A stretch of 64,000 bases of DNA from an uncultured candidatus Porisulfidus sp. (GTDB taxonomy: Bacteria > Pseudomonadota > Gammaproteobacteria > Poriferisulfidales > Poriferisulfidaceae): assembly GCA_965199755.1 (NCBI GenBank), contig CBDASZ010000001.1, positions 832,001 through 896,000 of the forward strand, in the 5' to 3' direction. The notes under the pieces are model-generated. The model was not told the DNA's origin and made no database searches. It was given only the letters and a program-made list of their open reading frames with translations. Numbering within the stretch: the first letter of the stretch is position 1; each line of letters opens with the position of its first letter. A program made the position numbers and the translations under genes. This document shows, in pieces, positions 3,338 to 24,454 of the stretch.

Positions 3338-4273
3338 ATGAGCATCGCATGCCTGTTCCCTGGACAAGGTTCGCAGCGCGTGGGCATGCTGTGCGAGATG
3401 GCGGAGGCCCACTCAAGCGTGGGTAACACCTTTGCAGAAGCCAGTGAATTGCTCGGTGAGGATCTGTGGCAACTGGCGCAGGAAGGACCCCCGGAAGTCC
3501 TGAATCAAACCCGCAATGCGCAGTTGACTTTGCTGGCGACAGAAATTTCAGTATGGCGGCTTTACTGCGCGCAAGGCGGGGCGCGACCGGATTATGTCGC
3601 CGGGCACAGTTTCGGGGAATATGCCGCATTGGTGGCGGCCGAAGCACTGACTTTCTCGGATGCCGTGCATCTGGTGCGCCAGCGCGGTGAATTGATGCAG
3701 CAGGCGGCCGCGGAGTGTGACGGCGGCATGGCCGCCATCCTCAAACTTGAAGCCTCGCGCGTCATTGAGATTTGCGCCCAGGTGGCTTCCGATACGCTGG
3801 TTGAAGCCGTCAATTTCAATGCGCCCGGACAAGTGGTGATCTCCGGCCTCAAGGATGGCGTGGCGAAAGCCTGCGAACTCTGCCAGGAAGAAGGCGGGCG
3901 AAGCATCATGCTGGAGGTGACAGTGCCGGCACACTCGAAAGTGATGCGCGCGGTGGACGAGGTGTTCACACAAGCTTTGCAAGAGATTGAATTTCACTCT
4001 CCCCAAATCCCGCTGGTCAATAATGTGGACGTGCGCGTTGAGACGGGGCCGCAACAGTTGCGCGAAGCATTGCGGCGGCAATTGCATTCCGCCGTGCGCT
4101 GGGAGGAGGGTATACTGACGATGATCAAGCACGGCGTTGATCGGTTCCTGGAAATGGGTCCCGGCAAAGTCCTGAGCGGTCTCAATCGAAGAATTGATCG
4201 CGAGGCGGTCAGCCTGTGCATTGAAAACCCGCAAACACTGCAACAAGCACTGGAGGAACAGTCAGATGCGTAA
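3338..4273 (+). CDS. fabD: Malonyl-CoA:ACP transacylase
   Basis: FPGQGSQ, GHSFGEY active site, [13 protein letters not shown]. Confidence 0.95.
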
Positions 4274-9196: not shown

Positions 9197-10189
9197 ATGA
9201 AGAAGAGGATGCGTCTGGGGGTGCTGGTGCTGTTCGTGGCCGTGACCGCGAGCACCACTTATCTGGCGCGGGCGTTAACAGAACCCATCATTGAGCCCGG
9301 CACGGTGCAGCAGATCCTGATTGAGAAAGGAGCCAGCTTCCAGGAGGTTTCCGACAAACTGGTAGTGCTCGGTGTCACCCACAGCCACACTTACAACTGG
9401 CTCGCCGCAAAACTGCTGCGCGCGGAAGGGCGAATCAAGGCCGGTGAATATCATCTGTCCGGCCCGCTGGGCATGCTGGATATTATGATGCTCCTGATCG
9501 AGGGTCGCAGCGTCTTTCATCGTACGACTTTGTTCGAAGGCTGGACGATTGAAGAGATGCTTGACGCCATGCGCAAAAACCCCACGCTGCAATCAAGTGA
9601 GGATCCGTTGCAGTTCTTTGGCTTCAATTCGCCCAGAGACGCAGAGGGACACTGTCTCCCGAATACCTACAAGCATTATCGGGGGGATACGGACGTGCAG
9701 ATTCTGGCACTGTGCATTCGGGCCATGCAGGAGCTACTCGATGAGTTGTGGGCGAATCGCAGTGAAGATCTTCCTTACAAGACCCCTCAGGAAGCGGTGA
9801 CACTGGCCTCCATCATTGAAGCCGAGACCAGTCAGGATGACGAACGCTCCATCATTGCCGGCGTGCTGTTATCGCGTCTGGAGCAGGGCATGCGCCTGCA
9901 AGTCGACCCGTCTGTGATTTATGGACTCGGTCCGGATTTTGACAATAACCTGACACGCAAGCATTTGCGCCAGTCGGCTGAAATCAATCCGTACAACACC
10001 TACCGCATCTACGGCTTGCCGCCAGGACCGATTGGCAACCCGGGACGAAAATCGCTTGAGGCAGCCTTCAACCCGGACTTTTCTACCGGCGCCCTGTATT
10101 ATGTGTCGAAGGGAGACGGGCGGCATCACTTCTCGAAAACCTACAAGGAACACCGCGCGTCGGTCCGAAAATACCAACTGGGGAAATAA
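9197..10189 (+). CDS. mltG: Endolytic transglycosylase MltG
   Basis: N-terminal TM, LASIIEAET, GMRLQVDPSVIYG, PYNTY..GLPPGPIGNPG. Confidence 0.92.
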   Translation: MKKRMRLGVLVLFVAVTASTTYLARALTEPIIEPGTVQQILIEKGASFQEVSDKLVVLGVTHSHTYNWLAAKLLRAEGRIKAGEYHLSGPLGMLDIMMLLIEGRSVFHRTTLFEGWTIEEMLDAMRKNPTLQSSEDPLQFFGFNSPRDAEGHCLPNTYKHYRGDTDVQILALCIRAMQELLDELWANRSEDLPYKTPQEAVTLASIIEAETSQDDERSIIAGVLLSRLEQGMRLQVDPSVIYGLGPDFDNNLTRKHLRQSAEINPYNTYRIYGLPPGPIGNPGRKSLEAAFNPDFSTGALYYVSKGDGRHHFSKTYKEHRASVRKYQLGK

Positions 10190-10191
10190 GC

Positions 10192-10818
10192 ATGAGCGCA
10201 CTTGGCAAATTCATCACGCTTGAAGGCATTGAAGGTGCCGGCAAGTCCACGCATGTGTCAGCCTTGGCGGATATGCTTGAGTCGCACGGCATCTCTTGCA
10301 TCTGCACTCGCGAAACCGGCGGCACGGCAGTCGGTGAGAAAATCCTGCAGACCTTGCTCGATGAATCCCTCCGGCCCATGCACATTGATGCTGAATTGCT
10401 GCTGCACTTCGCCGCACGCGCCGAGCATGTCTCCGAATTAATCCGTCCCACTCTGGAGCAGGGCACCTGGGTCATCTCCGATCGGTTTGTAGACAGCAGT
10501 TTCGCGTATCAGGGTGCCGGCATGGAATTGGGGGAGGCGCGAATTGAAGCGCTCGTGCAATGGACTTTGGGAGACTTCACGCCGGATCGCGTGATCGTGC
10601 TGGACGTGGATGAGCAGACCGGCTTTGACCGTGTTCAGGATCGCGGTCATCTTGACTGGTATGAGAAACTCCCAGCCGCGTTCTTTTCACGAGCACGACA
10701 GTGCTATCTTGATCGCGCGGCCGCGCAGCCGCAGCACTATCGCGTCATTGATGCAACACGCAGCGTGGCTGTCGTTCGTCAAGACGTACAGGACGCGGTG
10801 CTGGAACTGCTCAAGTGA
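10192..10818 (+). CDS. tmk: Thymidylate kinase
   Basis: FITLEGIEGAGKST, VISDRFVDSSFAYQG. Confidence 0.95.
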   Translation: MSALGKFITLEGIEGAGKSTHVSALADMLESHGISCICTRETGGTAVGEKILQTLLDESLRPMHIDAELLLHFAARAEHVSELIRPTLEQGTWVISDRFVDSSFAYQGAGMELGEARIEALVQWTLGDFTPDRVIVLDVDEQTGFDRVQDRGHLDWYEKLPAAFFSRARQCYLDRAAAQPQHYRVIDATRSVAVVRQDVQDAVLELLK

Positions 10819-15654: not shown

Positions 15655-16401
15655 CACGCCGATCCCTTCGATCTCGACTTCCACCGTGCAGCCGCGCGGC
15701 ATCGGCCCTAGTCCGCAAGACGTGCCGCAGCAAATCACATCACCCGGTAACAGACTCATGTTGCGCGACAAATACGACACAATCTCCGGCGGGCCCATCA
15801 TCATGTCGCTGGCCGGATAGCGCTGGCGCTCCTCACCATCAACGCGCGTCACAATCTCCAGATCCCGATAGTCCAGATCCGTCGCCACCACAGGACCGAA
15901 TACGCCGAACGTGTCAAATCCCTTCGAGCGCGTCCACTGATCAAAACCCTCATAGTCCTTAAGAATACTGAATGCAGTCACGTCATTGATGCAGGTGTAG
16001 CCGAAGATCGCGTCCGCAGCCTTTTCCACGTCCACTTCCTTTACGCGCCGGCCAATAACGATCCCCAGTTCCCCCTCATAAAACACGTCTTCTTCAATTG
16101 AGGCGGGATGCTCAATGACTTCTTCCGTCGCCAGAAATGAGGACGTCGCCTTGAACAGATACAGCGGGGTTTGCGGAAAGTTCAGGCCCTTCTCTTGCGC
16201 CAGTGCCTTGTAGTTGTTCCACAGAGCCGGCATCTTGCTTGGCTGCGTCGGTGTCAACAGGCGCACCTCTGATGAATCCACGGTTTCTCCTGCGGATTGC
16301 GGCGAATCAAACATGTCGCCCTCGCAAACCTCGATAGTGTTCCCATTTAACCGCCCAAAACCCATGCGATTGCCCTGTGTAAATCGTACCCAGTGTGTCA
16401 T
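15634..16401 (-). CDS. Fumarylacetoacetate hydrolase family protein
   Basis: YEGELGIVIG, GYTCINDVTA, RSKGFDTF, LLPGDVICCGT. Confidence 0.92.
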   Translation of the reverse strand: MTHWVRFTQGNRMGFGRLNGNTIEVCEGDMFDSPQSAGETVDSSEVRLLTPTQPSKMPALWNNYKALAQEKGLNFPQTPLYLFKATSSFLATEEVIEHPASIEEDVFYEGELGIVIGRRVKEVDVEKAADAIFGYTCINDVTAFSILKDYEGFDQWTRSKGFDTFGVFGPVVATDLDYRDLEIVTRVDGEERQRYPASDMMMGPPEIVSYLSRNMSLLPGDVICCGTSCGLGPMPRGCTVEVEIEGIGVLRNRYR

Positions 16402-17360
16402 GTTGCCAATTCCTTAGAAAGATTTTTCAAATAATTGATTCTGCTGTTATTTAATGATGCAGCATTGGTCGCTTTGCGCCAGTCTCGCGCACCCGGCCGG
16501 TTGCGAAACAGGCCAGACAGGTGTCGCGTTATTCGAACCAGCGGAACACCCCGACTCTCCTGCTCTAGCAAGTAAGAGAAATAAGCATCCAGTACGGCAA
16601 GCGGCATCGGCAAGACGCTGCCTTCAGGAAACAGATGGCGCTCAATATGCCGGACCTGTGCAGGGTTCTCATACGCCAAACGTCCGACCATTACTCCGTC
16701 GACGCACCCCAGATGCTCCTGAACTTCCCTCACATCCCGTATCCCGCCATTCAAAATGATTTCGCAAGAGGGAAACTGTTGCTTCAATCGATAAACGCGT
16801 GCGTAATTCAGTGGCGGAATGGTGCGATTCTGCCTGGGACTGAGCCCGCGCGACAGAAGCGCCTTGCGTGCATGCACGTAAAAAACCCAACAACCCGCCG
16901 CCGAAACGGTCTGAACAAACTCAAGCAAAGATTCCTCTGCATCCTGATCATCCACCCCGATTCGGCACTTGACCGTAACCGGGACAGTAACCTTCGCCTG
17001 CATGGCTGCAACACACTGTGCAACCTGTGTCGGCTCGCGCATCAGACACGCGCCAAACCGCCCTTGCTGTACCTTGCCGCTAGGGCAGCCCACATTCAAG
17101 TTGATCTCATCATAGCCACGGGCTTCTGCAATAACTGCGGCATGCGCCAATTCTTCCGGATCGCTGCCGCCAAGTTGCAGCACCAGCGGGTGTTCGCTGG
17201 GATCGAATTCCAGCAGTTGAGGGTCGCCATGCAAGACCGCGCCTGAGGTTATCATTTCTGTAAACAACCGGGCATGAGGCGCCAGTAACCGCATGAGATA
17301 GCGGAAATGACGGTCCGTATAGTCCATCATCGGCGCAATGCAAAAAAGACGGTCAATCAC
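16398..17360 (-). CDS. dusA: tRNA-dihydrouridine(20/20a) synthase
   Basis: APMMDYTDRHFRY, QLGGSDP, NLNVGCPS, HARKA..GLSPRQNRTIPPL. Confidence 0.93.
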   Translation of the reverse strand: MIDRLFCIAPMMDYTDRHFRYLMRLLAPHARLFTEMITSGAVLHGDPQLLEFDPSEHPLVLQLGGSDPEELAHAAVIAEARGYDEINLNVGCPSGKVQQGRFGACLMREPTQVAQCVAAMQAKVTVPVTVKCRIGVDDQDAEESLLEFVQTVSAAGCWVFYVHARKALLSRGLSPRQNRTIPPLNYARVYRLKQQFPSCEIILNGGIRDVREVQEHLGCVDGVMVGRLAYENPAQVRHIERHLFPEGSVLPMPLAVLDAYFSYLLEQESRGVPLVRITRHLSGLFRNRPGARDWRKATNAASLNNSRINYLKNLSKELAT

Positions 17361-17504
17361 AGTGAGAGCACATAATAGGAACTGGAGGGAGAGATGGGAC
17401 TTATTTATATTGCCTGCAAGAATAATGTGCCAGAAAAAATTCGCAACTTGCTCAATCGTTTCTGCACACCTGTATTTTGCAGCATACTAAAAACGCCAAT
17501 ATCT

Positions 17505-18191
17505 TCAACTGACGGATTCAAGGAATTTCTCTGGCGCAATCACCGCCTCGCGATTCAATTTAGTCGCCCACGCTCTAACCTGTCTCTCATCCGCACTTGC
17601 GATGGCTTCACATACTGCCCGATCCCATTCTTGTCTCACTTCGGTGTATCCCTCCCGATATTGAGGCACATCAATGTCTTTTGTGTTCTCCCAAGCCTCT
17701 ACCAAACGATTAATCACCTTGGTCTTTTTCGGACAGGGCACAATTACTTGAGATAGTCCTTTGGGATTCCAGTTCGGCCATCCTAGCCCTTTTCCACCTC
17801 TGTGTTTGAACAGTTCTATTCTTCCGAGAGTACTGTTGAGCCACACGGCCCATGCCTTTGCTAGTTCCATGTCTACGCCTTGGACCGGCTTCCATACCAT
17901 TCCAATGGTTCGCTTCGTACAGACAACTGCCCCCACCCGTGCAGATTCCAGATTTTGCCCCGTGCACAGCATAAGATGTGCTGCATACTCGCTAGTCCAC
18001 TTTTTCCATAGCCGTTTTTCGCGCTCAGCATAACTTGCGTCGCTTTCTCCTTTTTTGCGCTTCAACTGCATCACTGAATCAGTTTTTCCGGCTAGCCGTG
18101 TCTGTCCAGATTCAGCTTTGCTATTCATGATCATACGTCGTATTCCGGTTCCGTCAAATTGCACTAGTGCGCCATCACCTGAGGCACGCAT
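17505..18191 (-). CDS. Putative C-terminal target-recognition portion of the RM enzyme (out of frame with upstream ORF)
   Basis: 228 aa; AWAVWLNSTLG...WPNWNPKGLSQVIVP resembles specificity-domain LNS motifs; joins upstream ORF if the G tract is 11 or 14 nt. Confidence 0.65.
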   Translation of the reverse strand: MRASGDGALVQFDGTGIRRMIMNSKAESGQTRLAGKTDSVMQLKRKKGESDASYAEREKRLWKKWTSEYAAHLMLCTGQNLESARVGAVVCTKRTIGMVWKPVQGVDMELAKAWAVWLNSTLGRIELFKHRGGKGLGWPNWNPKGLSQVIVPCPKKTKVINRLVEAWENTKDIDVPQYREGYTEVRQEWDRAVCEAIASADERQVRAWATKLNREAVIAPEKFLESVS

Positions 18192-21100
18192 CCGTACCCC
18201 CCCCCCCCCTTAATTTCAACTTCGCCGATGGCAATAAGTTCGTCCCACGACTCCATCATCTCAACAGCTTCATCCAGAGTTGGGTCAGACCATCCTGCTG
18301 CACTCCAGTCACCTTGCTGGAGACGCATATTACTGACTTGCCATGTCTTCACCCCAAGGACGTGTGCACCGCCTCGAATCGCTTCAACAATCTCAAGCAC
18401 CTCGTCTGTAGTTTCAGGCATACGTCCAATGCTCACAAATGTAGTTGATCGATTTGTTCCCCGTTCATCACGTGTCCCAATGACTAAGCTTTCGTTTGCG
18501 GCCGTGTTTTGACTCATATTAGGCTGTTTAGGATCGTGGGCCGTTACCACATATTGAATGTGCAATTCTCTCGCGAGGATTTTGCGTTGTTGCAATCCGG
18601 TTGGCGCTAGTAATCCGATAGTCGGAAGTACCATGCCTAATACTCCGCTATCCTGATCAATACACCTGAGACCTAATCCAACATATAGCGGTTGGGTTGT
18701 GTTTTTGTCAGTTATGTCTTTAAGGTCTGCACATCGTGTATCCATGACCGCTTGTCCGGCATCGATTCGGCGCCGTATTGCTTTTTGCTCTTCAGGTTTA
18801 AACTTCATGCCAAGTTTTTTACGTGTCACGAATGGAGGATTGGTCAAAACCACCCGTCTTCCAACAACTGTGTCCACCACATCCTCGACTTTTCCTTTCT
18901 GCTCTGTTGGCTCGTCATCTTTCAAGCCAATCTGCTGACCCTTAGCAGCCGTTTTGTACGGCAGTAGAGTCTCCGGGAACAAGTCATCTTCATCTGTTTC
19001 ACCAACTACACGCTCGTCTACAAGCAACTCCAAAGACCCCGCTTTTGCTGGCTCGTTATGGTTGTCTCCTTGCTGCCCATAAGGCATCTTCCAAAGGTTC
19101 ATGCTCTTATAACGAGCATCAATGTCTCCAATGATGAGTTGTGCTCCTGCAAGCTGAAGGGACACAGGATTTATGTCTAACCCAACCACACCGTGTTCTA
19201 CAGCATATTTGTGGAGTTTTTTCAAGGTTTTCTCGTCAGCACCTTGCTCACGTGCACGCCGTTTCATCGCGGTTATATATGCGATCAACAACGTTCCGCT
19301 ACCGCAGGTTGGATCAAACGCGCGGGCATCTCTCCAAGTCTCCTTCTTTTTCCAGTCGACCTCTCCAATACTTTCCGTCACCAGTTCCGCAAGTAGCATG
19401 GCCGCCATTGGCTTAGTGAAATAGGCGCCATCCGAAGCTTGATTACCCATAACCTTGTTAAATAGTTCTCCGGCGAAATCCATACCCATCGCTGCGTAGG
19501 TTTCAGCAATGTTTGCCGCATCCTTTGCAATGCCTCTAAGTGCTGCATCAAGTGCTACCGTTTTGCGAACTTCGCGTGTCAGATGGAAAAGCAGATTCCG
19601 GCTTAAAGTAAATACTGGCTGATAATCGATTTCAAGAATCTGATTCCAGATCGATATGAGGTCTTCCGCTGGCGCCCCAGAAGTTTGTACATCGATTAGT
19701 CTTTGAATCTTGCGACCTTCCATGACTTTGCCTTGCTCCAACCGCGCTTGCACAATGCAAGCCATCATCATCATCAGTGCTGTGACAGTACATGCATCAG
19801 CACTCTTCTCTGTCTGTTGGATTCTGTCCATTCCAAGCTGGCCTCGGAGTTCACGCTCAAGACCATCTTCGCGTAATTGATGTGAGGAACGTTCAACTGT
19901 CTCACGTAAAATATTGAAATCTCGCTCAGCCCCACTTAATAGCCCTGATCGTTTTAGCAAGTTAACACGTATGGCATCTGCCTGTGGACCAAGTTTGTCG
20001 AGTAGAGATAGTTCACCTTGGAACGCTTTCTCTTTGTTTGCATTATTGATTCCTTTTTGCGGGTCACGTAGTTTGATGGCCTCTTTGTCTCGTCTGGCAC
20101 AAGCGACTGTTAGTAATTCTCGTGCCTGTGCCGCTGCCGGACCTACCGGATAACCTTTATTCTCCCTTGGGTAATTGACTTCTGCACAAACTCCTGCAAC
20201 TTTTGGCTTCTCGCGGTGCGTGTCGTCTACGATGATAGTATCGTATGGTCTCTGCTGAATGATCGTGTCGCCATCGACATCCTTGACTTCTCCATTATTC
20301 TGAAGCCGCTCAATAACACTCGACTGATCTCCTACATCTGCAATGAGAGGTTGAATGCTATCAGCGAGACCAACCCAGAGCAAACTTTTGATGCGACCAT
20401 CATCTGACTTCACTGTGATGAGATGCGGCACGTGCTCTTTGGAAGGCTTCGGCACTACCAACGTGAGTTGATCTGTTAATGCACTTTCGATTCGATCATC
20501 ATGTGCACGCAGCGCATTTAGCACTTGCCCGAGTTCCTTCCATCCTTCATCATTTGTCTGTGACTCGAGCCAGCTTTCTGCACACTGTCCGGCCGGAATT
20601 ACCAGTGGCACAATTATCAGTCCAATCTCTTTTTTGCTACTCCGGCGCATTACACGCCCCACGGCTTGGATTACATCTACTGGACTTTTTCTTGGCTCAA
20701 TGAAGGCGACTGCACTCAGATCTGGCGTATCGATCCCTTCTCCGAATATTCCGACGTTGCATACTGCATATGGCTTTTCGTTTGTGGCAGTGCGCAATTT
20801 CTCCAGTGCCAACTCGCGATTGACTGCACCATCACTGGAATCGCGATGCTCAAGACTGTATTCGATCTTCTCAGCGTGCCCTACACTTGCCTTCTCTTTC
20901 ACCCATACACGAACATTTTCTTTGCTGAGATCAGTGACTAATTCTTTCGAGCGGCTTATTCGATTACAAAAAGCAATGCTAGAGCGTATGGAGAGATGAC
21001 CATTCGCATTTAAAGCTGGCACCCCGCCTCCCAATGCCAAACTGTATGCCAGTTTACGCACTGCCAGACTCGTGTTGTGTCCTCGTGGGTCAGCTTTGTG

Positions 21101-22585
21101 TCCGGCTGCCTCTGCAGCTCGGATATTTTCGGATGCAATTTCATTCCCCAAGTCATAAGCATCGCCGGGAACGCCCACAGCAACAATACGGTAGTCCGTC
21201 AAATATTTCTTTTCGACCGCTTCTCGATAAGATAATCTGTAACAAACGGGCCCAAATAGCGCTTCATCATCCATCGTGCTAACTTCCCAGTTCTTGGCAG
21301 CATAATCACCTTTTTTCGCTTCTCCCATCGCGAAATTTCGTGGAGTAGCAGTCATGTATATCCGCGTACGTGCAGGCATGTCTTTGCTACGATGGCAGGT
21401 AGTAAAGGATCTAACTCCTTCCTTCTTTTTCGCAGATTTCATTGGACGTATGCCAGCAGTTCGATGCGCTTCATCGCAGATCAACACTGCGGCACGTGTC
21501 TTCGTATCGCGAAGTGCCCGCGCTGTCTGGTGGCTGGATTGATAAGTAGAGAAAATGACGCTTCGTGTGCCCTTGCGCTTTGATCCCTCTAGCCACTGAG
21601 CTATGCCGGTAGCTTCCCCACGAACCTCCCCTGCCAGCTCACCTGCTTGCATCAAGCTGCGGTCTGCAGTCGGATCGTCTATAGCGTTTTCTGCATGGCG
21701 TTCCTCCTGATTTTTTAGGTCTTTAGGACTGGCTACGTGTCTGTCAGAGCATACAGAGAGTGTCTCGATCTGTTCACCATGCCGTTCAGCACAGTCAAGC
21801 CATGCTAGGCGCAATTGCCTCACTAGCCCAATACTCGGCGCCAGCACTACGACCAAGTTATTGCCTCGCTTGCCCCCTGGTAGATTTTCAATTAGTCCTC
21901 GGGCGGCATCATATCCAACCCGGGTTTTCCCTGTACCACAGGGCATGATGATTTGGCCTCGTGATTCATCATTTGCCCACTCTGCATGCTTTGTTTTTGC
22001 TTCACGGATATGCTCCAGTTTTTCTAATGCTTTCTTAACTGCTTGCTGTTGCATGGATGACCTTGGATCTTCCCGATGACTTGTGGCTTCCTCACACCGG
22101 GTTACTTCTCTCCGTATTGCAGCGCTGATGTTAATCACCTTGATTTTAGACTCCTCATCTGGGAGAATTTGCGCTTTCTGATACAAATGCTCACCTGGTT
22201 GAGCAACCGTTACAAGCCATCGCTCGCCCCAATTTTTGTTCTGCGTCGCAGACGAAAACTCAGTAATATCCTCCTTTCTCAATGATAATGGCTTTCCTTT
22301 TTTGCTAAACCTGCGTGCTTTGCACTGGATTGCAATCAATCGCCCGTCCTTTCTCTCTGCAACAAGGTCAATACCATCATCTTTGCGACGTGCGGCAGAG
22401 CCAAAGTTATCCTCTAAACCTGGCCAGTCTTTCCACTTCCATATTTGGCTGATATCCCATTCGAGAATACATGCCCCAAAATTCTCCGTTAGATCCTCAA
22501 GCCATTGACCATCTCCTGCGTCATCCTTGTGGTCAGCAATGATCTGCAATGCTCTTTTCAGATTCTGTATATGAGGGTTTCCCAT
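18164..22585 (-). CDS. Single-polypeptide restriction-modification-like enzyme: Mrr-type nuclease + SF2 helicase + N6-adenine methyltransferase (Type ISP-like), truncated by frameshift
   Basis: DDGIDLVA..IAIQCK nuclease; MPCGTGKT, DEAHR, MTATP, GEGIDTP, QAVGRVMR helicase motifs; GAYFTKP, FDPTCGSGT, TNPPF methyltransferase motifs; ends 10 sense codons after poly-G. Confidence 0.88.
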   Translation of the reverse strand: MGNPHIQNLKRALQIIADHKDDAGDGQWLEDLTENFGACILEWDISQIWKWKDWPGLEDNFGSAARRKDDGIDLVAERKDGRLIAIQCKARRFSKKGKPLSLRKEDITEFSSATQNKNWGERWLVTVAQPGEHLYQKAQILPDEESKIKVINISAAIRREVTRCEEATSHREDPRSSMQQQAVKKALEKLEHIREAKTKHAEWANDESRGQIIMPCGTGKTRVGYDAARGLIENLPGGKRGNNLVVVLAPSIGLVRQLRLAWLDCAERHGEQIETLSVCSDRHVASPKDLKNQEERHAENAIDDPTADRSLMQAGELAGEVRGEATGIAQWLEGSKRKGTRSVIFSTYQSSHQTARALRDTKTRAAVLICDEAHRTAGIRPMKSAKKKEGVRSFTTCHRSKDMPARTRIYMTATPRNFAMGEAKKGDYAAKNWEVSTMDDEALFGPVCYRLSYREAVEKKYLTDYRIVAVGVPGDAYDLGNEIASENIRAAEAAGHKADPRGHNTSLAVRKLAYSLALGGGVPALNANGHLSIRSSIAFCNRISRSKELVTDLSKENVRVWVKEKASVGHAEKIEYSLEHRDSSDGAVNRELALEKLRTATNEKPYAVCNVGIFGEGIDTPDLSAVAFIEPRKSPVDVIQAVGRVMRRSSKKEIGLIIVPLVIPAGQCAESWLESQTNDEGWKELGQVLNALRAHDDRIESALTDQLTLVVPKPSKEHVPHLITVKSDDGRIKSLLWVGLADSIQPLIADVGDQSSVIERLQNNGEVKDVDGDTIIQQRPYDTIIVDDTHREKPKVAGVCAEVNYPRENKGYPVGPAAAQARELLTVACARRDKEAIKLRDPQKGINNANKEKAFQGELSLLDKLGPQADAIRVNLLKRSGLLSGAERDFNILRETVERSSHQLREDGLERELRGQLGMDRIQQTEKSADACTVTALMMMMACIVQARLEQGKVMEGRKIQRLIDVQTSGAPAEDLISIWNQILEIDYQPVFTLSRNLLFHLTREVRKTVALDAALRGIAKDAANIAETYAAMGMDFAGELFNKVMGNQASDGAYFTKPMAAMLLAELVTESIGEVDWKKKETWRDARAFDPTCGSGTLLIAYITAMKRRAREQGADEKTLKKLHKYAVEHGVVGLDINPVSLQLAGAQLIIGDIDARYKSMNLWKMPYGQQGDNHNEPAKAGSLELLVDERVVGETDEDDLFPETLLPYKTAAKGQQIGLKDDEPTEQKGKVEDVVDTVVGRRVVLTNPPFVTRKKLGMKFKPEEQKAIRRRIDAGQAVMDTRCADLKDITDKNTTQPLYVGLGLRCIDQDSGVLGMVLPTIGLLAPTGLQQRKILARELHIQYVVTAHDPKQPNMSQNTAANESLVIGTRDERGTNRSTTFVSIGRMPETTDEVLEIVEAIRGGAHVLGVKTWQVSNMRLQQGDWSAAGWSDPTLDEAVEMMESWDELIAIGEVEIKGGGGYGCVPQVMAH
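18197..18209 (-). repeat. G13 homopolymer (C13 on + strand), candidate phase-variation tract
   Basis: + strand tccgta-C13-ttaatttc; the only long homopolymer noticed in the window; lies exactly at the frame break. Confidence 0.9.
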
Positions 22586-22868
22586 AGTGCTCCTTCCGAA
22601 TTATCATTCTATTTCTAGAATTTTGTGATCTTTTTCGACATTTCTCTTGCTGACAATGCGAAGCGAATTCCTACCAGATGTTCATGCTCAATTGGAGATT
22701 ATTCTAGCAAAACGCTCCCGACTCAGAAGCGGGGAAAATCCAATGGCGGCAATCACCATGCCCCAATAGCGCCTTTAATTCCGGCAAGTATCAAGAAACT
22801 AAGCGCATTTTTCGTAATCACCATCGCACTGTTGGTGCGGCTTATGCCAGTTCATGCCTAGTTCTCCT

Positions 22869-23755: not shown

Positions 23756-24454
23756 CTATCCATTCTGCAACCAATTGAAGAGCAGCGACTCCAGTATATC
23801 GCGTGTTCTTGCCTGATAAGCCAGAGTTTCCGTTCGCAGGATTGTCGGTGACTGCACAAAGTGATCTTCTTCAAGCTGATGGGTAAATACGCGCACCATC
23901 GTCTCGACCTCTGCCGGTCCCATCTCCAAATGGAATTGCAGGGCGAGTACTCGCGCATCAAACAAGAATCCCTGATTGCGACAACCTTCACTCGCCGCCA
24001 TTGGCAAGGCCATTTCCGGGATGTTAAACGTATCTCCGTGCCAGTGCAGGACCGGAAATTCCGCGGGCAAGCCCTGCCCTATCGGGGTGCATAAGAACTC
24101 ATCAGCAAGTTGTATCGGATACCAGCCGATTTCTGCAACCGGATTTGCTCGAACTTCTGCACCTAGGGCATGTGCGATCAACTGCGCTCCCAGACAGACA
24201 CCCAGAACATGTTTACCTGCGTCGATCGCTTGTTGGATAAAGATCGTCTCGGGAGACAGCCAGTGATATTCGGCATGGTCTGAAACGCCCATCGGCCCGC
24301 CCATGATGACCAGAGCATCAAAACTGTCCGCCTCGGGAAGGGGGTGCGCTTCGTACATCCGGTGCCGCTTCATTTCACCGGCGTGCGCCTGAATGAAATC
24401 TGCTATGCGTCCAGGGCCTTCTGCAGGCACATGCTCCAGTATCAGAAAGCGCAT
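23756..24454 (-). CDS. Type 1 glutamine amidotransferase-like protein
   Basis: IMGGPMGV, LGVCLGAQL, HWHGDTF, LQFHLE (Cys-His-Glu triad). Confidence 0.92.
   Translation of the reverse strand: MRFLILEHVPAEGPGRIADFIQAHAGEMKRHRMYEAHPLPEADSFDALVIMGGPMGVSDHAEYHWLSPETIFIQQAIDAGKHVLGVCLGAQLIAHALGAEVRANPVAEIGWYPIQLADEFLCTPIGQGLPAEFPVLHWHGDTFNIPEMALPMAASEGCRNQGFLFDARVLALQFHLEMGPAEVETMVRVFTHQLEEDHFVQSPTILRTETLAYQARTRDILESLLFNWLQNG

Follow-up and report, generated by a model that had tools for sequence, protein, structure and literature searches.

Within the window analysed here, a 64,000-nucleotide (nt) stretch of genomic DNA from an uncultured candidatus Porisulfidus sp. (contig CBDASZ010000001.1, positions 832,001 to 896,000), one very large restriction-modification (RM) gene on the minus strand is split into two open reading frames (ORFs) by an uninterrupted run of thirteen guanines (G13). 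We propose that this is probably a phase-variable gene of Type ISP-like architecture, driven by slippage at the poly-G tract and caught by the assembly in its 'OFF' phase. Several of the features that characterise a contingency locus are present: a long, uninterrupted repeat within an ORF, a product that is toggled by the length of that repeat, and a genome-wide set of similar repeats in defence and surface genes.

On the coding strand the run (C13 on the plus strand) is read as ...GAA ATT AAG GGG GGG GGG GGG TAC GGA TGC..., and the upstream ORF of 1473 amino acids (aa; hereafter P0001) passes through it to end as ...EIKGGGGYGCVPQVMAH*, with its stop 10 sense codons 3' of the run; the downstream ORF of 228 aa (P0002) is read in the -1 frame relative to the first. 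When the length of the run was varied in silico, the stop-to-stop frame measured 1697 aa with G11 and 1698 aa with G14, as against 1474, 1478 and 1475 aa with G12, G13 and G15, respectively; translation of the G14 version from its ATG at 22585 would yield ~1693 aa. An earlier note on this DNA had described the G13 run, the two ORFs and the position of the stop, all of which agree exactly with the sequence and the list of ORFs, and its claim that either G11 or G14 would join the two ORFs is borne out by these frames.

As judged from comparison with homologs, the two ORFs appear to be parts of a single gene, both halves of which are intact, with no decay of the downstream ORF. A search with residues 1000-1473 as the query found 1294 proteins of 810-2578 aa among the 8000 candidates scored, and most of the 120 homologs listed are 1660-1810 aa long. 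In 112 of these 120 the match to P0002 follows directly upon the match to the tail of P0001 (in the closest homolog, P0003, the one ends at residue 1361 and the other begins at 1364), such that the homologs are full-length across the junction, a point that the earlier note had suggested checking. Free-standing P0002-like proteins (125-399 aa) number only 12, the window's own included, versus 1294 long forms, and several of the 12 come from contigs shorter than 4 kb. Where alignment columns are at least 95% conserved, the window gene keeps 23 of 25 downstream of the junction and, before it, 204 of 217. Nine of the 13 columns missed in the upstream part lie at the N terminus, where the add-fragments alignment left gaps even though the IAIQCK motif can be seen in the sequence; motifs of the nuclease, the helicase and the methyltransferase are all legible in the translation of the upstream ORF. 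The decayed downstream ORF, which the earlier note had offered as the mark of a simple pseudogene, is therefore not what was found.

At the junction itself, 55 of the 56 homologs aligned have 'GV' only, at the point where the window gene has K-GGGG-(V). The sole exception is P0003 (84% identity over the query region and 76% over P0002), which reads D-GGGG-V in frame, so the nearest homolog does, at the protein level, have the insertion at the place where the earlier note had proposed to look for a retained tract. Because all of the other aligned homologs have 'GV' only, the Gly4 insertion, which is common to the two closest genomes, would seem to be a recent one that stands in opposite phases in the two. 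As called, P0003 starts at the equivalent of window residue ~100 and is without the nuclease motif, which may represent either a 5' lesion or an artefact of gene calling. Further afield, distant homologs (31-42% identity to P0002) occur in only 5 of 60 related genomes, and the loci fetched from those five contain no G or C run of at least 7 nt. A pattern search of genome contigs based on P0002 gave 77 pattern matches, none of which was confirmed. Runs of at least four Gly or Pro are seen in 11 of the 120 homologs listed, and the protein sequences suggest that independent homopolymer switches may exist elsewhere in the enzyme family. Among these 11, P0029 and P0038 carry G6, whereas P0064 and P0066 carry P7 (one-letter amino-acid code), at positions other than the window junction; two N-terminally truncated ORFs of the family begin right at such a run.

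A single polypeptide holds three of the components expected of a Type ISP enzyme, namely an Mrr nuclease, a superfamily 2 (SF2) motor, and a gamma-class methyltransferase with both motif I and NPPF, and the nuclease-helicase-methyltransferase fusion claimed in the earlier note is upheld by Pfam domains and by homology to LlaBIII and LlaGI. The first 716 residues are homologous to LlaBIII (4xqk, E 9.8e-56, residues 65-716) and to LlaGI (E 4.1e-49, residues 183-716); the Pfam ResIII and Helicase_C matches together span residues 177-648, and N6_Mtase matches residues 1048-1158 (E 5e-5), with motif I (DPTCGSG) near residue 1091 and motif IV (NPPF) at 1249-1252. By contrast, no sequence alignment of the C-terminal half could be obtained to LlaBIII, or to the canonical Type ISP gene that this genome also carries. 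The Pfam families ISP_coupler and Type_ISP_C, both of which match that other gene, gave no match in P0001, nor did Type_ISP_C in P0002, and P0002 is without similarity to the Type_ISP_C fragment found elsewhere in this genome. Among PADLOC profiles the best match is REase_MTase_IIG (1646 positions, E 2.7e-89), but it covers residues 44-710 only, and membership of Type IIG is ruled out, despite this label, by the complete SF2 ATPase lying between nuclease and methyltransferase. The enzyme is thus a divergent, single-chain Type ISP-like one, a class that the earlier note had left unnamed; we use this name because it has the same architecture and a homologous nuclease-motor half, together with a methyltransferase-recognition half that has diverged. 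Type ISP enzymes proper use ATP to translocate from an asymmetric site, and cleave DNA where converging enzymes collide.

To place the tract in a three-dimensional context, we used an AlphaFold model of the homolog P0006 (1140 aa), built with 64 relatives, in which residue n corresponds to window residue ~n+550 near the junction; its mean predicted local distance difference test score is 80.1, with values of 85-98 across the last 450 residues, and its predicted template modelling score is 0.70. The junction falls at model residues 908/909, where a loop of two residues links a short helix to a strand. Methyltransferase folds match the model with Z scores of 20-26. Type I HsdM chains, which have no target recognition domain (TRD), align to it from residues ~324-330 (2ar0 from 493) and end at 884-887 (7vru_B, 3khk, 2okc, 3lkd, 3ufb, 2ar0, 2y7c and 7bst were compared), whereas TRD-bearing enzymes align as far as 1065-1129; these include CamA (residues 3-577, Z 26.5), M.BseCI, M.TaqI (21-413), MmeI, DrdV, BpuSI and BrxX (1-918), with CamA and M.TaqI aligned over their whole length. 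Both Type ISP structures reach as far and align to their ends, LlaGI over residues 715-1569 (Z 23.1) and LlaBIII over 726-1573 (Z 22.0); with regard to a coupler domain between motor and methyltransferase, these alignments begin only at LlaGI 715 and LlaBIII 726, i.e. model residues 328 and 346. Given where the HsdM alignments stop and how far the TRD-bearing enzymes reach, the model puts the tract at the start of the recognition domain, in a loop ~20 residues past the end of the methyltransferase domain; the earlier note had likewise set it between the methyltransferase and recognition regions. On the same model, the OFF product would be without almost the whole of its recognition domain. In BrxX, a flexible hinge joins the methyltransferase domain to the TRD (PMC11842806), and a run of glycines is presumably tolerated in the boundary loop here; the case hints at where in an enzyme of this kind a tract can be accommodated.

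The G13 run is not a chance feature of the genome in which it lies (1,389,004 bases in 4 contigs, 58% G+C, 98.9% complete). Runs of G or C of 6, 7, 8, 9 and 10 nt number 115, 14, 2, 0 and 0, respectively, and are followed by nine of 11-16 nt; A/T runs never exceed 8 nt. A run of at least 11 nt was reached in none of five third-order Markov simulations, and the number expected is ~0.008 by extrapolation of the empirical decay, or 2.5 under a cruder, zero-order model (0.2 for runs of at least 13 nt). This bimodal distribution of lengths is the signature of maintained hypermutable tracts. The tracts lie in or beside genes for defence, methylases, an adhesin and glycosyltransferases (Table 1); in Campylobacter, too, defence, methylation and surface or lipopolysaccharide genes are the classes that carry such tracts (PMC4889913). 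With regard to reading frame, the window gene needs +1 to be restored, the HATPase_c_3-related gene needs -1 (or +2), and the Dam-like methylase is already in frame, so a bias of homopolymer calling in one direction does not explain the pattern. The G11 tract that precedes the Calx-beta protein falls inside the 3' end of a 184-aa ORF without a family. Following the Dam-like methylase is a 421-aa DUF6996/DUF6997/DUF7226 protein, perhaps its restriction partner. Loss of mismatch repair was considered as an origin of the tracts and rejected, as both mutS and mutL are present.

Table 1. Features of the window gene (window positions) and long G/C tracts elsewhere in the genome (locus positions, with genome positions in parentheses)
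Feature	Location	Strand	Description
Whole Type ISP-like RM gene	17505..22585	minus	~1693 codons after frame restoration; out of frame at the G run in the assembly; homologs of 1660-1810 aa collinear with both ORFs
Upstream ORF P0001, 1473 aa	18164..22585	minus	Native to Gly1463, then 10 out-of-frame codons and TAG
Mrr-type PD-(D/E)xK nuclease	22130..22456	minus	Residues ~44-152, including ...GIDLVAE...IAIQCK...; Pfam Mrr_cat_2, E 1.5e-12; LlaBIII alignment from residue 65
SF2 helicase-like ATPase motor	20615..22057	minus	Residues ~177-657; GTGKT, DEAH, TATP, QAVGRVMR; Pfam ResIII E 1e-17, Helicase_C E 6e-8
N-terminal helical domain and gamma-class N6-adenine methyltransferase	18275..19957	minus	Residues ~877-1437; boundaries approximate, via the P0006 offset of +550
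G13 homopolymer	18197..18209	minus	Codes for Lys-Gly4; frameshift point; predicted ON with G11 or G14, OFF with G12, G13 or G15
Downstream ORF P0002, 228 aa	17505..18191	minus	Frame open from 18197; with upstream residues ~1438-1463, the predicted C-terminal DNA-recognition (TRD-like) domain
Promoter-like site	22600..22629	minus	15 nt upstream of the ATG; 9 of 12 consensus matches; weak, the region having fewer such sites than its shuffles
Terminator-like hairpin and T run	17494..17514	minus	Overlaps the stop codon of the downstream ORF; consensus match only
C14 and C12 tracts			3' part of the canonical (second) Type ISP gene
G15 tract			Immediately 5' of an ORF of 225 aa, itself the C-terminal part of a Type_ISP_C domain
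G16 tract	Within L010:3441-5566 (G000:C2:131440-133565)		In frame, codons ~40-45, near the start of a D12-class Dam-like adenine methylase of 287 aa
C13 tract	Within L011:3166-5095 (G000:C2:164165-166095)		HATPase_c_3-related gene split into 402 + 299 aa; frame predicted open over 648/649 aa with C12 or C15
G11 tract	Within L009:3-5398 (G000:C2:5002-10397)		33 nt before the ATG that starts a giant Calx-beta/fn3/He_PIG surface protein of >1615 aa (runs off the locus)
C12 tract	Within L013:3824-4569		End of a 102-aa GT9 heptosyltransferase fragment, beside a GT1 gene
C14 tract	L012:3867-3880		Spacer between truB and an ORF with a molybdopterin-binding domain

Amongst related genomes, G runs of at least 11 nt are found in 15 of 15 others of the genus and in 17 of 19 of one sister family, as against 0 of 17 in a family with ~1 Mb genomes and 1 of 9 from the other families sampled; these counts of matches overlap, and some of the matches lie at contig ends and may be artefacts. 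Richness in poly-G looks like a trait of the lineage that has been lost in its most reduced relatives.

Of ten sequencing runs listed, seven contain all or part of the stretch: four carry the label sponge metagenome, which agrees with a sponge symbiont as the source, and three the label organism A. The remaining three, of raw reads, were added by species label; four runs (X5, X6, X8 and X9) were compared over window positions 17600-18800. A Logan contig from X5, at a depth of 8.9, carries this whole stretch with 0 differences over 1201 bases, the G13 run included; the length of the tract is hence reproduced by a second assembler, with the proviso that X5 is possibly the source run, and the G11 or G14 that the earlier note had named as the sign of an assembly error did not appear there. 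In X6, another sample, two contigs end at 18189 and at 18198, i.e. at the tract.

Synthesising these findings, we envisage that slipped-strand mispairing at replication changes the length of the poly-G tract. With G11, G14 or G17, the full enzyme of ~1693 aa would be made, with a linker of three to five glycines in the loop at the start of the recognition domain ('ON'); with other lengths, G13 among them, translation would end 10 codons later, and the resulting protein would retain nuclease, motor and methyltransferase yet lack nearly all of the recognition domain ('OFF'). The ATPase of LlaBIII is switched on by target recognition through its methyltransferase and TRD (PMC7049714) and, by analogy, a protein without a TRD would be expected neither to methylate, nor translocate, nor cut. 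Methylation by Type ISP enzymes depends on target recognition as well, and the OFF form should therefore lose restriction and methylation together, and would represent a safe null state, in which lethal restriction without protection is avoided by a single slippage event. A population of symbionts might then be a mixture of ON and OFF cells, which hedges phage defence, or methylation-dependent expression, against the cost of the enzyme and the risk of self-restriction.

Several observations weigh against such a switch. Raw Illumina reads from X8 and X9 amounted to 13 and 2, respectively, all of less than 99% identity and none across the tract (depth was at most 3, and ~0.05 over the tract, and the two runs, of the same host label, gave reads only from a 95-99% relative), a result that is equally no evidence for a fixed tract length. 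The break of the X6 contigs fits a mixture of lengths but is not proof of one, as a contig may end there for other causes. The Gly4 of P0003 is known from the protein only, such that a pure G run in its DNA is not established; a search of the genome contigs of other species representatives for a C run of at least 10 nt at the junction (C10, a gap, then the GDWSAxGW motif) gave 0 matches, and a looser C8 pattern in metagenome contigs gave 8 loci, none of the eight homologous by tblastn. With mutS and mutL in place, slippage is not boosted by the loss of mismatch repair, so switching would rest on tract length alone. Finally, at its poly-G tracts the second Type ISP gene has the look of one that is rearranged and dead, so tracts in this genome can mark decay as well.

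This last point leads to the idea that slippage has inactivated an acquired RM gene once and for all, the OFF allele now decaying in a genome-reducing symbiont with no adaptive, reversible switching. The small genome (1.39 Mb), the rearrangement of the second Type ISP gene at its tracts, and the HATPase_c_3 and GT9 genes likewise broken at theirs, are all in keeping with fixed loss, as is the fact that variation in tract length was not demonstrated in any of the four runs compared. We nonetheless think it unlikely: the 1693 codons contain no second lesion, and the gene retains conserved columns to either side of the junction; the tract is long and uninterrupted, such that reversion should remain frequent; in the nearest relative the same insertion is in frame; and so is one tract-bearing methylase gene. 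That the homopolymer was miscounted, the real genome having G14 or G11 and a gene that is simply intact, would be in line with runs of 13 nt being error-prone on all platforms. We hold this to be very unlikely, however, in view of the G13 reproduced in the X5 contig (maybe the source run) and of the other broken tract gene needing the opposite correction whilst one tract gene is in frame; even if true, it would leave the tract as a slippage-prone site.

It is also conceivable that G13 is not truly OFF, because slippage by RNA polymerase, or -1 slippage by the ribosome, yields the full-length enzyme, or because the 228-aa part is translated from the ATG at 18191 and acts in trans as a specificity subunit. 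By reasoning only, the G run pairs equally well after a -1 shift, and the ATG stands 5 nt after the run, with AAGGGGG as a possible Shine-Dalgarno-like site; separate specificity subunits occur in Type I and Type IIB systems. The methyltransferase-plus-specificity part of a Helicobacter pylori Type ISP gene, HP0669, is moreover active alone (PMC3936762). Against this, no stimulatory RNA structure is predicted 3' of the run (z = +1.6, with 193 of 200 shuffles folding at least as well) and no Rfam element was found there, on which grounds a programmed frameshift or RNA element was rejected. The Met at 18191 is an inherited in-frame residue, part of a GVTM motif in most homologs aligned, and the rarity of free-standing homologs (12 short forms to 1294 long) makes the free specificity subunit put forward in the earlier note a weak alternative. 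Whilst low-level slippage of RNA polymerase or ribosome on the run may occur, we regard it as highly improbable that G13 is functionally ON by any of these routes, and continue to favour a phase-variable gene in its OFF phase.

Flanked by dusA (16398-17360) and a glutamine amidotransferase gene (23756-24454), the gene stands by itself within a low-G+C segment at ~17.4-23.7 kb directly upstream of dusA; the RM gene with 1.17 kb of upstream sequence is 46-51% G+C, and the gene itself 47-50%, versus 58% for the genome. No integrase, notable repeats or adjacent tRNA were found at the edges of the segment, and none of the small flanking ORFs, those of the upstream spacer included, matches a Pfam family. 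This is probably an accessory gene that was acquired horizontally, low G+C being the sole sign of acquisition.

The second Type ISP gene (L008:3820-9494; G000:C1:136819-142493) itself looks permuted. Proteins of relatives align to L008 5862-4474, up to just before the G12 tract, and then to 9469-8810, just after the G15 tract and 5 kb upstream of the gene, with ~56 residues missing between the aligned parts; after the G12 tract, the 1640-aa ORF of the gene continues through unrelated hydrophilic sequence and the G14 tract. Both breakpoints are at poly-G, which could reflect a rearrangement, misassembly at the tracts, or a dead gene. There is also a 231-nt direct repeat of 74% identity (L008:3426-3656 and L008:9530-9760), of which one copy is the 3' end of an intact folD (9515-10375) and the other, across the Type ISP gene from it, a folD 3' fragment (ORF 3411-3842). 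The ~6.1-kb block therefore resembles an insertion that entered the end of folD and carried a folD end of its own; no integrase was seen.

If variation in tract length is real, then sponge symbionts would share with pathogens a form of bet-hedging against phages, and possibly epigenetic heterogeneity as well. This would matter for how metagenome-assembled genomes are read, in which such a gene is routinely annotated as a pseudogene or as two separate genes. One might go further, in a conjecture that we offer with considerable doubt, and suppose that poly-G contingency loci are a lineage-wide strategy of these sulfur-oxidising gammaproteobacteria, the sponge symbionts among them included, and that the Type ISP-like family has repeatedly evolved homopolymer switches, in the window gene as a glycine linker where methyltransferase and TRD meet, toggling both the genome-wide N6-methyladenine pattern and phage defence; the symbionts of one sponge would then be epigenetically mosaic, and a marine symbiont that is no pathogen would possess a 'phasevarion'.

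Slippage switches in RM genes are textbook knowledge for host-adapted Campylobacter, Helicobacter, Neisseria and Haemophilus. The closest precedent is that named in the earlier note, Cj0031 of Campylobacter jejuni NCTC11168, and it is a real one: a G9 tract at base 2573 of 3732 splits the gene into cj0031 and cj0032, and most alleles are without the tract (PMC4889913). Like the window gene, it has poly-G about two-thirds or more of the way along one large, fused RM gene, at OFF lengths it is annotated as two ORFs, each with conserved domains, the tract is absent from most homologous alleles, and the genome has a set of other poly-G/C contingency loci. Unlike the window gene, it encodes a Type IIG enzyme of 1243 aa with no ATPase motor, its tract is shorter, and in the cultured pathogen to which it belongs measurements have been made of switching, methylation site and phenotypes. 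Poly-G phase variation of a fused RM enzyme is thus already established, and the window gene would appear to add a Type ISP-like case.

For Type ISP enzymes themselves, we found no simple-repeat switch described in the available text of the literature searched; H. pylori Type ISP genes do have frameshifts, which are described as 'not due to sequence repeats' (PMC3936762), and a review, in its available parts, ties phase variation to Types I and III only (PMC12707154). Nor, judging from the search listing, was any such switch found among the papers listed on sponge symbionts. LlaGI and LlaBIII (PDB 5ffj and 4xqk) share with the window enzyme a one-chain domain order and a homologous nuclease-motor half, and the C-terminal half of the P0006 model superposes on both (Z 23.1 and 22.0, respectively), but their methyltransferase-TRD half cannot be aligned in sequence with that of the window enzyme, and the window enzyme is without ISP_coupler and Type_ISP_C matches. 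In the phase-variable Type III mod and Type I hsd systems, slipped-strand mispairing in repeats likewise switches a methyltransferase, and with it the methylome, on and off; these are multi-subunit systems, however, in which the switch usually lies in mod or in hsdS/hsdM (PMC12707154). In the window gene, by comparison with such phasevarions, one tract would switch both the targeting of the nuclease-motor and methylation within a single polypeptide.

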